DNA of 17,902 nt from Thermoproteaceae archaeon (GTDB lineage: Archaea > Thermoproteota > Thermoprotei > Thermoproteales > Thermoproteaceae), in assembly GCA_020833025.1 (NCBI GenBank), contig JAJHRB010000029.1, positions 1 to 17,902 of the forward strand, in the 5' to 3' direction. This document shows positions 4,848 to 17,902 of this stretch, piece after piece (the first letter of the stretch is position 1; the number at the start of each line of letters is the position of its first letter). The notes below the pieces were generated by a model that worked only from the letters and a program-made list of their open reading frames with translations, made no database searches and was not told the origin of the DNA. The translations under genes and the position numbers were made by a program.

Positions 4848-5735
4848 GTGCTCGAGACTGCGCTCCTCAGGGCAGCCAAGGAGGCTATTGCACGCGCCAC
4901 AGTAGGCCTGCCTTCCGACATCGTGGCGGCACTGGAAAGGGCAGTTGAAAGCGAGAGGAGCGAAATGGCGAGGTACCACTTAAAGGCAGCCCTCGAGAAT
5001 GTGCGCCTGGCAGTACGCCGCAGGGCCGCCGCGTGTCAGGACACAGGATTTCCCAGCTTTTATGTGAAACTCGGCGACGGCTTTCCCCTGAGGAGCAGAG
5101 CGCTTGAAATACTTGCGCAGGCCGTGCGCGAAGTCTCGCACGAGCTCCCGCTCAGGCCCAATGTTGTGCACCCCATCACCGGCAGGGTCTTCGAGGACAA
5201 CGTAAGCGCCGGCGCGCCGTGGTTCGACGTCGAGCTAGCCGCCGGCGACTACATTGAGTTCTTTTACGTGCCGAGAGGCGGCGGCTCCGAGCTTCCGAGC
5301 GTGGCCTTCACGCTCCCTCCGGGCATTGCGCTGCGAGAGCTCCCGCGCGTGGTCTTGAGGGCTGTAGTGAGGGCGGGGCCTGTGCCGTGCCCTCCCGTAA
5401 TCGTGGGAATCGGGGTGGGCCCGTCGGTTGATATAGCAGCGAGACTCGCGAAACGAGCAGCGGTGCTGAGGCCCGTGGGCTCCAGGCACCCCGAGCCCGA
5501 GATAGCGCGCGTGGAGGAGGAGCTGCTAAGGGCCATCAACATGCTGGGAATTGGCGCGCAGGGAGTGGGCGGCGCGATAACGGCGCTTGACGTGCACGTA
5601 GAGTACGCGTGCAGGCACCCGGCCGCCTTTTCTGTCGGAATAGCCTTTTCCTGCTGGGCTACTAGGAGGGCCGGCGCCAGAGTCTATCCCGACGGCAGTT
5701 ACGAGCCACTAGACGCGCCGCCAAGACTTAAATAA
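4848..5735 (+). CDS. Fe-S hydro-lyase alpha subunit (class I fumarate hydratase / L-tartrate dehydratase alpha)
   Basis: Three [4Fe-4S] ligand motifs CQDTG, CPP and CW, plus LRPNVVHP, GGGSE, RPVGSRHP, LGIGAQGVGG and RHP. Confidence 0.92.
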   Translation: MLETALLRAAKEAIARATVGLPSDIVAALERAVESERSEMARYHLKAALENVRLAVRRRAAACQDTGFPSFYVKLGDGFPLRSRALEILAQAVREVSHELPLRPNVVHPITGRVFEDNVSAGAPWFDVELAAGDYIEFFYVPRGGGSELPSVAFTLPPGIALRELPRVVLRAVVRAGPVPCPPVIVGIGVGPSVDIAARLAKRAAVLRPVGSRHPEPEIARVEEELLRAINMLGIGAQGVGGAITALDVHVEYACRHPAAFSVGIAFSCWATRRAGARVYPDGSYEPLDAPPRLK

Positions 5736-5737
5736 AT
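5728..5737 (+). promoter_or_regulatory. TATA box for the tRNA-Asn 3' fragment
   Basis: TTAAATAAAT overlaps the upstream stop codon. It would start transcription at about 5755-5762, giving a 20-25 nt leader before the exon at 5782. Confidence 0.55.
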
Positions 5738-5781
5738 GTCTGCAGAGAGAGGCAGTCTCGGGACCCGTCGCGCTCGCCGAT

Positions 5782-5845
5782 GCTGTTAACCCGTAGGCCG
5801 GTCCGCGGGCGGAAGTCCCGGGTTCGAATCCCGGCGGCGGCGCCA
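5782..5845 (+). tRNA. 3' fragment (position 31 to CCA) of tRNA-Asn(GUU); putative split tRNA with a 45/46 intron
   Basis: G31, loop CT-GTT-AA (anticodon 5785-5787), stem CCCGT, AG, [intron 5797-5814], GTC, T-arm CCGGG-TTCGAAT-CCCGG, acceptor strand CGGCGGC, discriminator G, CCA. There is no GCCGCCG/D-arm 5' half nearby on either strand. Confidence 0.85.
5797..5814 (+). other. 18-nt archaeal tRNA intron at position 45/46 (BHB-like)
   Basis: Central helix CCGT (5791-5794) pairs with GCGG (5809-5812), bulges are AG^G and AA^G, and the intron hairpin is CCG-GTCCG-CGG. Removal restores the AGGTC variable loop. Confidence 0.85.
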
Positions 5846-15056: not shown

Positions 15057-17429
15057 CTACTTGCCGCTCCCCCTCACCGTGCCGACGACGAACAGCGGGA
15101 CTTCAAACGAGCCCCCGTGGTAGTAATACAGCAGCACCTTGGCAATCTCCCGCAGAATTAGCATGAGGTCGCCGCGCTTGACTCCCGCGGCATCGGCTGC
15201 CTCCCTCCAGGGTCTTGCCTGCAGCACCTTGCTTAATAGTATCCTCTCGGCGGCGTCAGGAAGTCCCGGCCTCCTGTCCCTGGAGTTGTAGAAATAGCGC
15301 GCAGTCAGCATGTACATGGCGTCCATCACGTTCTCGTAGGTCATTGGGCCGAACGCGTAAGCGACAAGCCTCTCAAGCTGGTTCCTCGACAGCAGCGGCG
15401 GCCCGTCGACATCCCACCCCCAGTCGCTCAGCAAGTACTGGACCTCGGACGGCAGGAGGTCGCTGTACGGGCCCATTAGCGAGTGCACGAGCCTCCTCCG
15501 GAACTCGATGTTCGCGTACCTGACGAACTCCCTGGCCCTCTCGCTGAGGGGCTTCACTAGCAGCACGCTGTACTCGCCCGACGACGGATTCCTCTCCGGC
15601 GACAGGTGAATTGGAACGAAGCCGTTCCTGATCCAGAATCTCAACAGCCTGTCGTAAACGCCGAAGCCGACGCCGATCCAGTCCATTCCGAGCTCTCTCG
15701 CCTCCTCCTCGATTTTCCTAAGCATGAGCGTGCCGAGACCCATGCCCTGAAGCTCGGGGTGCGTGGCTATCCTCACAATCCTCCAGCCCCTCAACCTCGC
15801 GAACTCGGGGACCCTCCAGTACTTCAAGAACCTGTCGGGAATTATGTTCCCGGGCAGTTTCAGCCCCCTCAGCGCCTGGTCTATTGACACGTCGTCGAGA
15901 CCCCCCTCATACGCCAGCTCGACTGACACCACGATCTTCCCGCTGGGCAACGCGAGGGCCCTGGCCGTGTGGTGCGGCGCGTCGAGAAGCATGCCGAGGT
16001 CGTCCGGCTCATTGCGGTAGTGAGCCTGCACGTAAATGCCAAAGAACTGGCGCAGCCTCTCCTCGTCGCCTATTATGTCCCCCTCCTTAAGGTAAACCAC
16101 CTCTTGTCTCTTCACGCACTCTACGTCTGACTCCTCAACTCTCGCCGGCTCGGCATTTAAGAGGAATGCGTTGAAAAGCCACCGCTCGACGGGGTCGTCG
16201 GGGCCGTAGCGTATCGGCTCCCTCATCTCGTAGACGTGCACCTCCGTGTCCCCGGACTCGCGGAGGTACTTCAGAAACCTTATTGAGAACCCCCTGCCGG
16301 CGCCCTCGTAGCCGTGAATTGTCGTGGCGAAGACGAGTCTGTCGAACTTCTTGTGCACGGCGTAGAGTGCCGGCAGCGGAACTGACGCTGCCTCGTCTAT
16401 AGCGACGATATCGGCACTCTCACGCTTTAGGAGCATGTACGGCGTGACGACGTCAATGAATATGCCCTTGGCCCTCACGGACCGCACCTCCCCGCCCTCT
16501 TTCTCCACGCCGGGCTTGTACCCCAGCGCCCTAAGCCCCCTTATGGCAAACTCCAGTAGTGTCTCCAGGTTCGCGTACTCCATCGCGCTGACGACTGCCT
16601 GCACTCTTGCCTTTGCCTTCCTGAGCCTGTGGCCTATTCCCGCGAGCCCGAGCCCCAGCGCGGCGCTCTTGCCGCGCCCTCTATCCGCTATCACGACTAG
16701 CGCAATTTTCCTCTTGGGCCTCTGGTAGAGCAGCTCGAAGAGCTTTAACACCTCAACTTGGTCTTGCGTCGCGGCCATTCGGTAAATCCTCGGCGATATC
16801 ACAGCCTTTTCGGGAATCTCGGGCCTCTTAGGCTCGTAGCGCTTAATTTCGACCGCTCCCGGCGGCTTTAGCAGCTCGCCGCGATCTGCATCAAAGACCG
16901 CGACGCCCTCGTGCTCGTACAGACTGCGCCAGAACCTCTCCTTCAGCCGGTGTCTGACGTCGCTCGGCGTGAACTGCGGCACGAGCAGCGCGGTCTGAAA
17001 TTTCGTGAGATAGCTCTTCCAGACGTGCAGCGGGGGCACGAGGAGTATGTACACGCCGCCGCCGCGCACAACTCCCCCGAGGCGCCCCACGTCGTTCGGC
17101 TTGAGGTCGTTTATCAGGTCGAGAACGGCGAAGTCATAAGTCGTGCCCAGCACCCGCTGCGTGTCCTTGTAAGGCCTGAATTCTGTCTCGAGCGAGGACC
17201 CCTCCAGCAAGTCTCTCAGGTAGTTCATTCGCTTGTTGGCGTCGGCGTACTCCGGCTGAAACATGTAGAGCCCCCTGGCGCCGCCCCCTGCCGCCTCATA
17301 CGCCCTGAGGGCCTCTGCCGCGCACTCCGCGAGCCTCCTGTCGTCAGTGCCAACCAGCACGACTAGCCTCCTGTGTCTCGCCTCCCTCGCCCTCTCAACA
17401 TCCGGCTTGACAATTTCATATATTGTCAC
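15057..17429 (-). CDS. tmcA: tRNA(Met) cytidine acetyltransferase TmcA / NAT10 homologue (RNA ac4C writer)
   Basis: N-terminal DUF1726-like region (PND.GRL...VRGGG), Walker A ADRGRGKSAALG, IDEAA, TTIHGYEG.GRGF, HYRNEP.DL..LLDAPHH, GNAT motif RIVRIATHPELQGMGLG. Confidence 0.96.
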   Translation of the reverse strand: MTIYEIVKPDVERAREARHRRLVVLVGTDDRRLAECAAEALRAYEAAGGGARGLYMFQPEYADANKRMNYLRDLLEGSSLETEFRPYKDTQRVLGTTYDFAVLDLINDLKPNDVGRLGGVVRGGGVYILLVPPLHVWKSYLTKFQTALLVPQFTPSDVRHRLKERFWRSLYEHEGVAVFDADRGELLKPPGAVEIKRYEPKRPEIPEKAVISPRIYRMAATQDQVEVLKLFELLYQRPKRKIALVVIADRGRGKSAALGLGLAGIGHRLRKAKARVQAVVSAMEYANLETLLEFAIRGLRALGYKPGVEKEGGEVRSVRAKGIFIDVVTPYMLLKRESADIVAIDEAASVPLPALYAVHKKFDRLVFATTIHGYEGAGRGFSIRFLKYLRESGDTEVHVYEMREPIRYGPDDPVERWLFNAFLLNAEPARVEESDVECVKRQEVVYLKEGDIIGDEERLRQFFGIYVQAHYRNEPDDLGMLLDAPHHTARALALPSGKIVVSVELAYEGGLDDVSIDQALRGLKLPGNIIPDRFLKYWRVPEFARLRGWRIVRIATHPELQGMGLGTLMLRKIEEEARELGMDWIGVGFGVYDRLLRFWIRNGFVPIHLSPERNPSSGEYSVLLVKPLSERAREFVRYANIEFRRRLVHSLMGPYSDLLPSEVQYLLSDWGWDVDGPPLLSRNQLERLVAYAFGPMTYENVMDAMYMLTARYFYNSRDRRPGLPDAAERILLSKVLQARPWREAADAAGVKRGDLMLILREIAKVLLYYYHGGSFEVPLFVVGTVRGSGK

Positions 17430-17449
17430 CGGCTAGACGCGCTGCCGCC

Positions 17450-17498
17450 GTATATAAGCCAGCGTCTGCGGCCGAGGCGGCAGAGAAAAACATAAATA
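17450..17498. promoter_or_regulatory. divergent promoters for tmcA (minus) and the tRNA-Thr 5' piece (plus)
   Basis: CTTATATA on the minus strand (17457-17450) is 21-28 nt upstream of tmcA GTG. Purine-rich GAGAAAAA plus CATAAATA on the plus strand (17483-17498) is about 21-28 nt upstream of tRNA G1 at 17519. Confidence 0.6.
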
Positions 17499-17518
17499 GT
17501 GAGACCCAGAGGGGGCCG

Positions 17519-17549
17519 GCCCCGGTAGCTCAGCCCTGGTAGAGCGCCT
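17519..17549 (+). tRNA. 5' piece (positions 1-29) of tRNA-Thr(GGU); putative split tRNA
   Basis: GCCCCGG acceptor strand, TA, D-arm GCTC-AGCCCTGGTA-GAGC, G26, CCT, then a trailer A-GGGAGTTCCCTCGGGCTG (17550-17568) complementary to the leader of the 3' piece. Confidence 0.88.
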
Positions 17550-17689
17550 AGGGAGTTCCCTCGGGCTGCCGGCTCTCTCCAAGACAGGCAGCAGTAGCTC
17601 CGCCCCGCGCGGAGTGAGTGGCGCGGGGATGTCGCGTGAACTCGGACCTAACAGCGGCACTCGGGGGCGGCTTGAGGCGGCAGGGCCGT

Positions 17690-17701
17690 AAAAAATATAA
17701 A
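17690..17701 (+). promoter_or_regulatory. BRE/TATA for the tRNA-Thr 3' piece
   Basis: AAAAAATATAAA, about 20-28 nt upstream of the complementary leader starting at about 17721-17723. It is the only AT-rich island in this GC-rich stretch. Confidence 0.65.
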
Positions 17702-17753
17702 GGATTGACGCGGGGCTTAAACCAGCCCGAGGGGCTCCCGCGTAGGCTTGGTA

Positions 17754-17772
17754 AGGGGGCAACCTCCCAACG
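17754..17772 (+). other. 19-nt canonical 37/38 tRNA intron (BHB)
   Basis: Central helix TTGG/CCAA, bulges TA^A and CG^A, intron hairpin GGGG-GCAA-CCTC with a GNRA tetraloop. Confidence 0.88.
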
Positions 17773-17791
17773 AGCAGGAGGTCCCGGGTTC

Positions 17792-17809
17792 GGGGGAGAG
17801 CCCGCCCAG
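17792..17809 (+). other. 18-nt T-loop tRNA intron, position 56/57 (relaxed BHB)
   Basis: Central helix GGGT (17786-17789) pairs with GCCC (17804-17807), bulges TC^G and AG^A, intron stem GGG/CCC. Removal gives the TTCAAAT T-loop. Confidence 0.78.
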
Positions 17810-17902
17810 AAATCCCGGCCGGGGCTCCAGTCCGCATTTCTGGCTCCCGCCAGGCCCGGCCGGCATTTAGCTCAAAGCCGACCAAATCGGCGCCGAGGAC
17901 GC

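Follow-up and report, generated by a model that had tools for sequence, protein, structure and literature searches.

The tRNA-Thr(GGU) analyzed here is encoded in four exons, the first two of which lie 196 nt apart, and the question raised by this locus is whether its pieces are transcribed as a single precursor with a long intron or as two transcripts that are joined in trans. Split tRNA genes are the subject of a long-running argument, in which they are regarded either as remnants of an ancient tRNA made in two pieces or as recent derivatives of intron-containing genes. The genome examined (labeled G000) is a metagenome-assembled genome of a hot-spring archaeon of the Thermoproteaceae, comprising 1.56 Mb in 126 contigs with 62.6% G+C and an estimated completeness of 94%. 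The stretch of DNA that was analyzed, referred to below as the window, is the entire 17.9-kb contig C74, and the tRNA-Thr(GGU) sits at its end.

With respect to gene structure, exons 17519-17549, 17746-17753, 17773-17791 and 17810-17829 yield 78 nt when joined, and ARAGORN identifies this spliced sequence as tRNA-Thr(ggt) with a 7-bp acceptor stem and D, anticodon and T arms. The cloverleaf is perfect, the invariant bases are all correct and the CCA is encoded, so that one cloverleaf is built from two pieces, as is looked for in a split tRNA. An earlier note on this DNA had proposed these four exons with their coordinates, the complete cloverleaf and the 196-nt gap between exons 1 and 2, and our analysis bears it out on each count. 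The gene is interrupted by 196 nt at 29/30, 19 nt at 37/38 and 18 nt at 56/57. It had also been anticipated that scanners would overlook the gene, and the unspliced window indeed returns no tRNA in ARAGORN and no family in Rfam. The features of the locus are as follows.

17485..17498, + strand: promoter of the 5' half (BRE/TATA-like), 12.9 bits, ending 20 nt before the mature 5' end
17519..17549, + strand: exon 1, positions 1-29 (acceptor 5' strand, D arm and 3 nt of the anticodon stem)
17550..17568, + strand: trailer, consisting of the final base of the 5' bulge (CT^A) and the 5' strand of the 17-bp helix
17573..17580, + strand: pyrimidine tract CTCTCTCC, candidate terminator of the 5' half (putative function)
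17581..17687, + strand: spacer, with a GC hairpin (17603-17610 / 17621-17628)
17688..17701, + strand: predicted internal promoter for the 3' half (BRE/TATA-like), 11.4 bits
17723..17745, + strand: leader, consisting of the helix 3' strand (17723-17739), GCGT (17740-17743) and the AG of the 3' bulge AG^G
17746..17753, + strand: exon 2, positions 30-37, including the anticodon GGT
17754..17772, + strand: canonical 37/38 cis intron, 19 nt, full bulge-helix-bulge (BHB) with UUGG/CCAA central helix and bulges UA^A and CG^A (from sequence and fold)
17773..17791, + strand: exon 3, positions 38-56
17792..17809, + strand: 56/57 cis intron, 18 nt, relaxed BHB with GGGU/GCCC central helix (from the fold)
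17810..17829, + strand: exon 4, positions 57-73 and the encoded CCA

The 37/38 intron is also present in congeners (L009), position 56/57 also holds an intron in the tRNA-Thr(GGU) of one congener and in the tRNA-Cys of congeners, and the BHB motifs at both sites fit the cis-spliced multi-intron tRNA genes of the Thermoproteales, in which a single upstream promoter drives one transcript. The 29/30 interruption likewise has a BHB, along with a second box of promoter grade. As for the intact tRNA-Thr(GGU) that the earlier note considered might exist elsewhere, neither a second Thr(GGU) nor an intact Thr anticodon arm in a tRNA context was found in the 94%-complete genome. ACC and ACT together account for 37% of Thr codons in the genome codon count. 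The gene in the window is almost certainly the working tRNA-Thr(GGU) of this organism.

The surroundings of the gene were also inspected. The gene diverging from the tRNA (window 15057-17429, - strand) encodes a 790-aa TmcA/Nat10-type RNA cytidine acetyltransferase with helicase and GNAT domains. Its counterpart in ten relatives has no adjacent tRNA, and the genes flanking it in relatives have no orthologs in the genome under study. No integrase or transposase was detected in the 4 kb downstream or in the adjacent upstream genes. Window positions 17777-17881, which cover exon 3, the 56/57 intron, exon 4 and a 52-nt 3' flank, share 92% identity with the tRNA-Cys(GCA) locus at G000:C89:52440-52543 (- strand), which suggests that the two genes have recently recombined or that a duplication took place between them; this 52-nt flank is absent from the tRNA-Cys of congeners. 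The spacer (17581-17687) has no other copy in the genome, and a search for an embedded small RNA gave only noise in Rfam up to E = 10 and no C or D box by reading. A direct repeat (17518-17536 / 17587-17605) with 15 of 19 matches may be due to chance.

In terms of the 29/30 junction, the trailer (17551-17568) and the leader (17723-17739) pair over 17 bp with one G-U pair (T17556-G17734) and one bulged U (U17557), as the earlier note had drawn them. The central helix of 4 bp, GCGC (17544-17547) with GCGT (17740-17743), and the 3-nt bulges CT^A and AG^G that had been described for this site are likewise present in our pair list. The trailer-leader duplex has an energy of -43.4 kcal/mol, compared with -26.2 +/- 4.0 kcal/mol in 1000 shuffles, none of which was as stable. 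GC-rich pairing of trailer and leader over about 12 bp or more at the junction is one hallmark of split tRNAs, and the 17 bp found here exceed that length. Another is a pair of 3-nt bulges with a 4-bp helix at the exon boundaries, which this junction presents in relaxed form. Specifically, the BHB conformer is less stable than an alternative pairing by 2.2 kcal/mol and lacks a clear outer helix, and it is this weak outer helix that places the motif in the relaxed class. The same BHB geometry is seen in a 29/30 cis intron that occurs throughout the family. The complete 311-nt stretch also folds in cis with an identical helix; folding of the whole precursor gave no signal against background (z = -0.55), and the informative part is the local helix alone.

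A split tRNA is further expected to have a promoter of its own before the 3' piece, followed by a leader of about 20-25 nt. Promoters were scored with a 14-column matrix derived from 16 ordinary tRNA promoters of the genome (consensus AGAAAGTTTAAAAA), whose leave-one-out scores span 11.2-20.6 bits; in ordinary tRNA genes, 20-29 nt separate the end of the box from the mature 5' end. The box upstream of exon 1 falls within both ranges (12.9 bits, 20 nt). The TATA box that had been reported ahead of the leader is present as an A/T box at 17688-17701, with a score of 11.4 bits that is at the low end of those for tRNA promoters and is the weakest among five Thr-related promoters (the others span 12.9-19.0 bits). 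Sites scoring at least as high number 661 genome-wide on both strands, which corresponds to an expectation of 0.04 per 196 nt and of 0.004 within the 20-nt window that would place the start at the leader. Between the end of the internal box and exon 2 lie 44 nt, and the corresponding distances in the unlinked Thr 3' halves of this genome are 41 and 43 nt. A start 22-24 nt past the box is predicted at 17723-17725, which are the first bases of the leader helix, and would give a leader of about 21-23 nt. On sequence grounds, the 3' piece thus has both the promoter and the leader length expected, with promoter activity being a prediction. An exact 10-mer, GAGGCGGCAG, occurs just upstream of both promoter boxes and hints at a promoter duplication; MAFFT yielded no alignment of the two promoter regions that bear it.

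With regard to termination, the pyrimidine tract CTCTCTCC that the earlier note had pointed to at 17573-17580 is present. Pyrimidine runs are enriched 3' of tRNAs in this genome (10 of 19, versus a fraction of 0.20 for random 30-mers), and downstream of both Thr 5' halves there is a run of at least 8 nt with at least 3 T, which 5% of random 30-mers contain. No oligo-T terminator lies between the halves of Thr(GGU), so termination at this point is at most suggested and some read-through is likely.

Important context is provided by the other threonine tRNAs of this organism, as no intact tRNA-Thr gene of any isoacceptor was found in the genome. A lone tRNA-Thr 5' half, covering positions 1-29, is located at G000:C34:9003-9033 (+ strand), where it is preceded by a 19-bit promoter and followed by a GC-rich trailer. 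Lone Thr 3' halves are located at C91:16936-17014 (+ strand, anticodon CGT) and C88:12883-12962 (+ strand, anticodon TGT), and each is equipped with a promoter of its own and a leader able to pair with the C34 trailer; each also has the GCGC central helix and contains two additional small introns. All three pieces are internal to their contigs, far from the ends, and they join at 29/30. As there is no 5' half near either the C91 or the C88 3' half, these must be independently transcribed. Moreover, the complementarity of the C34 trailer to both leaders, together with the contig-internal position of the pieces, makes it appear that one 5' half serves two anticodons in trans. Judging from these complementary halves and their GCGC helix, the organism appears to rely on trans-splicing at exactly the 29/30 junction. 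The predicted cross-duplex between the Thr(GGU) trailer and the Thr(CGU) leader, which is irregular, nearly equals the cognate duplex in stability (-42.3 kcal/mol), and energy alone consequently does not account for the choice of partner.

Split genes in this genome extend beyond threonine. The tRNA-Asn(GUU) is split between a 3' half in the window (5782-5845, + strand, within the locus 5724-5845) and a 5' half at G000:C20:13302 (- strand); the 3' half comes with an A/T box, a leader and a small intron in the variable region, and its leader matches the trailer GGGTCCCGAGAC of the 5' half perfectly over 12 bp. A similar lone Asn(GUU) 3' half is found in the complete genome of a congener, G015. 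An orphan fragment resembling a tRNA 5' part (GCCCCGGTAGCACAGCCCGG...) lies behind a weak A-rich box at G000:C89:50115 (- strand), and no 3' partner for it was found. In terms of the processing enzymes that split tRNAs call for, namely a two-subunit splicing endonuclease of broad specificity and an RNA ligase, the genome encodes both an endonuclease and a ligase. Two matches to PF01974 represent EndA paralogs, one on C61 (100 bits) and a weak, beta-like one on C29 (19 bits), with putative subunit roles, and RtcB is encoded on C60. The RtcB family match (G000:C60:4614-7331, + strand) falls in two pieces about 1.3 kb apart within one 961-aa open frame, with the intervening part probably being an intein.

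Comparison with relatives places the 29/30 junction in a family setting. A cis intron sits exactly at 29/30 in the tRNA-Thr(CGU) and tRNA-Thr(UGU) genes of 27 out of 29 genomes of the family; it takes the form of 17 distinct versions of 20-21 nt with a 5-bp inner stem, one of them with a compensatory GGAGC/GCUCC stem, and of a few versions of 36-56 nt. The short intron of the Thermoproteaceae resembles the window junction in its insertion point, in its GCGC helix with a GCGU-like strand, in its bulges (CC^A or CT^A, and AG^G-like) and in its ends (AGGG... and ...CCCGCGTAG). It differs in having a 5-bp stem and a 3-nt loop, where the window has a 17-bp stem around 154 nt that include the promoter-like box. 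Based on the shared ends, central helix and bulges, the window junction is the homologue of an established splice site in which the stem has been lengthened and 154 nt now occupy the loop. Of 17 genomes of the genus, 14 show no interruption at 29/30 in the GGU isoacceptor itself, which indicates that the interruption in the window is derived.

The complete congener genome G015 offers a second adjacent arrangement. Its tRNA-Thr(GGU) (G015:C1:1603021-1602199, - strand; L221) has its split at 30/31, and about 740 nt separate the two halves; the 5' exon runs into a trailer of 14-16 bp and then a T-run, and a strong promoter and complementary leader precede the 3' part. This demonstrates that split Thr(GGU) genes with adjacent halves exist in the genus. 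The assembled anticodon loop of this tRNA would read CCGGTAA, in which a C takes the place of the otherwise invariant U33. Its leader and trailer are unrelated to those of the window, so the G015 split was probably an independent event. G015 also contains a promoter-bearing repeat of about 150 nt in five copies (C1:1602264, 1561423, 862982, 1555364 and 1526297, all on the - strand), and the three copies that were read lie directly before lone 3' halves (Thr GGU, Asn GUU and Lys CUU). This repeat, which is absent from G000, G004, G010 and G014, looks like a mobile promoter cassette tied to tRNA splitting. In two further genomes of the family (L048, G004:C31; L062, G018:C57), a tRNA-Thr 5' half with a normal promoter runs into non-tRNA sequence, and these are possible further cases of split or disrupted Thr genes. 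A search for the same-junction pattern across 120 genomes of the class gave only chance matches in coding sequence outside the genome under study. In metagenomes, a 16-nt leader/exon-2 pattern gave only chance hits among the matches listed, with a tRNA in none of 80 loci.

Taken together, these observations make it probable that tRNA-Thr(GGU) is expressed from two adjacent same-strand transcription units joined by trans-splicing, perhaps with some cis-spliced read-through. This reading draws on the score of the internal box and its 44-nt spacing, the trans-split sister genes and the split congener, the 17-bp helix, the 196-nt length and the pyrimidine tracts, as well as on the finding of only one Thr(GGU), the invariance of box and leader across metagenomes (described below) and the presence of EndA paralogs and RtcB. 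In the mechanism that we propose, unit 1 would start from the promoter at 17485 and contain positions 1-29 and the GC-rich trailer, probably ending at or past the pyrimidine tract. Unit 2 would be driven by the promoter at 17688, start near 17723 and comprise a 23-nt leader and positions 30-76 with the 37/38 and 56/57 introns. Trailer and leader would anneal over their 17 bp, with the acceptor stem contributing 7 bp, and would thereby present the BHB at 29/30. A two-subunit splicing endonuclease of the crenarchaeal type would cleave this motif and RtcB would join the exons, and the same enzymes would excise the 37/38 and 56/57 introns in cis. Read-through from unit 1 into unit 2 would generate a precursor that could be spliced in cis via the same helix, and the locus may consequently use both routes.

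The alternative that survives best is a single transcription unit with a 196-nt cis intron at 29/30, in which the A/T box is inactive or irrelevant and the helix just closes the loop for the endonuclease. We consider this possible but rather unlikely. It accords with the homology of the junction to the short cis intron of tRNA-Thr(CGU/UGU) in the family, with the ability of the 311-nt stretch to form the same helix in cis, with the lack of a T-run terminator between the exons and with the position of the internal box as the weakest of the promoters compared. A cis route by itself would yield an identical product. Moreover, a read-through precursor is detectable by RT-PCR in Aeropyrum pernix, as described in the split-tRNA sections of PMC3218864. 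According to the same sections, however, archaeal tRNA introns range from 11 to 129 nt with a median of 15, and the 29/30 interruption lies outside this range and holds no embedded small RNA, whereas the other two interruptions, at 19 and 18 nt, lie within it. The earlier note's judgment that a cis intron of 196 nt would be unusual is in keeping with these figures. A single unit also does not account for a box of promoter grade on the correct strand where 0.04 are expected, a spacing that agrees with that of the unlinked 3' halves and a helix that begins at the predicted start. Finally, judging by the sister genes, the organism appears to run this very junction in trans.

Additional evidence on the locus comes from four hot-spring metagenome runs belonging to two studies. 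Independent contigs from all four runs span 17300-17795, and those of one run extend to 17829, which demonstrates that the arrangement is not an assembly artefact. Across these four metagenomes, eight variant sites are located in the spacer and two more between box and leader, and none is located in the internal box, the leader or exons 2 and 3. Exon 1 has a single variant (C>T at 17536 in the D loop), as does the 37/38 intron (17761, in the hairpin loop), and the sole helix variant, T>C at 17556, converts the G-U pair to G-C. The contrast between functional parts (3 of 135 sites) and spacer (10 of 138) is not significant (p = 0.085), and it accordingly serves as supporting color only.

These data also bear on whether the locus could be a non-functional relic, that is, tRNA pieces that were united by recombination or a mobile element and are not spliced. 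Mobile-element tRNA fragments are known, as at the Caldiarchaeum tRNA-Thr(GGU) locus (PMC3293823), relatives hold no tRNA at the corresponding site, and the 92% identity of the 3' part and its 52-nt flank to the tRNA-Cys locus is a sign of recent recombination. Nonetheless, a relic would not be expected to form a perfect cloverleaf with all invariant bases and three intact splice motifs, or to be kept in four metagenomes with changes that are exclusively neutral or pair-preserving. It would also have to be the only Thr(GGU) found in a genome in which ACC and ACT codons are common, and no integrase or other mobile-element gene is nearby. We therefore regard a relic as very improbable. Least credible of all is an assembly chimera in which exon 1 and exons 2-4 came from different places or strains and were fused at a repeat, as the location of the tRNA at the end of C74, the opening of contig C75 with the same 127 bases and the high copy number of the T-arm region in metagenomes might suggest, since the metagenome contigs run unbroken from 17300 to 17795, and to 17829 in one case, and the 17549-17746 junction lies in unique sequence of even depth, with the repeat affecting only sequence past 17776.

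If the gene does consist of two adjacent units, its origin may be sought in the short 29/30 intron of tRNA-Thr found across the family, whose hairpin would have been lengthened and whose loop would have gained promoter-bearing DNA. We tentatively suggest, with slightly more doubt than confidence, that the locus is an intermediate caught in the act, in which acquisition of a promoter in the hairpin loop of a cis intron produced a two-transcript gene that can be spliced either way, as part of a change affecting all three Thr isoacceptors. The halves of GGU would then still be neighbors, while the 3' halves of CGU and UGU would have become dispersed with one shared 5' half. Such a history would constitute direct comparative evidence that split tRNA genes arise from intron-containing ones, and this in a group of genus rank for which complete genomes exist. 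A graded series can be laid out at one site in one family, from uninterrupted 29/30 through a short cis intron, an enlarged intron and adjacent halves with their own promoter to fully dispersed halves sharing a 5' piece. This series favors recent derivation, with promoter gain inside an intron as the key step. There is also a practical consequence for genome annotation: because standard scanners miss the split gene, metagenome-assembled genomes of this group will appear to be without tRNA-Thr.

Among known systems, the tRNA-Thr(GGU) of Caldiarchaeum subterraneum involves the same isoacceptor. There, intron gain within a population and scattering of a 5' fragment have been described as a snapshot of tRNA gene disruption (Sugahara et al. 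2012, PMC3293823). That fragment arose as a side product of a 1.8-kb element with a recombinase, and the working gene, its introns aside, is whole (PMC3293823), whereas the window locus has no mobile-element gene near it and the only Thr(GGU) found requires both pieces.

The classical split tRNAs, as presented in the split-tRNA sections of PMC4033280, include the shared halves of Nanoarchaeum equitans (tRNA-Glu) and the split and tri-split tRNAs of Caldivirga maquilingensis; the review counts 29 split genes with 12 anticodons in seven genomes. In these organisms, separate loci with complementary leader and trailer and a relaxed BHB are comparable to what is seen here, and the use of one piece for several anticodons has a likely parallel in the C34 Thr 5' half, which appears to serve CGU and UGU. 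The halves in N. equitans and C. maquilingensis are dispersed (PMC4033280), whereas those of Thr(GGU) in the window are neighbors. Trailer-leader helices of known split tRNAs measure 13-14 bp in the corresponding sections of PMC3218864, and the GC-rich helix of 17 bp at the present locus is of that order.

In agreement with the earlier note, which knew of no split tRNA-Thr, the split-tRNA sections of PMC3218864 and PMC4033280 make no mention of threonine, and a term search in the text of the latter did not turn up tRNA-Thr either. The same sections of PMC3218864 (Chan and colleagues 2011) give no split tRNA for five Pyrobaculum species, and a full-text literature search found no later reports of split tRNAs in the Thermoproteaceae. 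Going by the literature searched, including the split-tRNA sections of these two papers, an adjacent-halves arrangement has not been found reported for threonine tRNAs or for the Thermoproteaceae, and the present locus would extend split tRNAs to both.

[quoted passage not shown] This gene was first annotated with a 121-nt intron that contains a strong internal promoter resembling the upstream one, and RT-PCR and northern blotting subsequently revealed two adjacent transcripts and a faint read-through product. As in the window, the halves lie on one strand, the promoter inside the 'intron' is similar to the upstream promoter and puts the predicted start 20-25 nt ahead of the 3' exon, and a GC-rich stem accompanies the BHB (14 bp in A. 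pernix, 17 bp here). The window locus differs in belonging to Thr(GGU), in having its junction at 29/30 rather than 37/38 and a spacer of 196 rather than 121 nt, in carrying two extra cis introns in the 3' half and in coming from the Thermoproteales rather than the Desulfurococcales. The A. pernix case has been verified by RT-PCR and northern blot, whereas the organization of the window locus is a prediction from sequence. The authors of PMC3218864 take the A. pernix gene as an intermediate between cis- and trans-splicing, and by analogy a mix of the two routes is plausible for the tRNA-Thr(GGU) described here.
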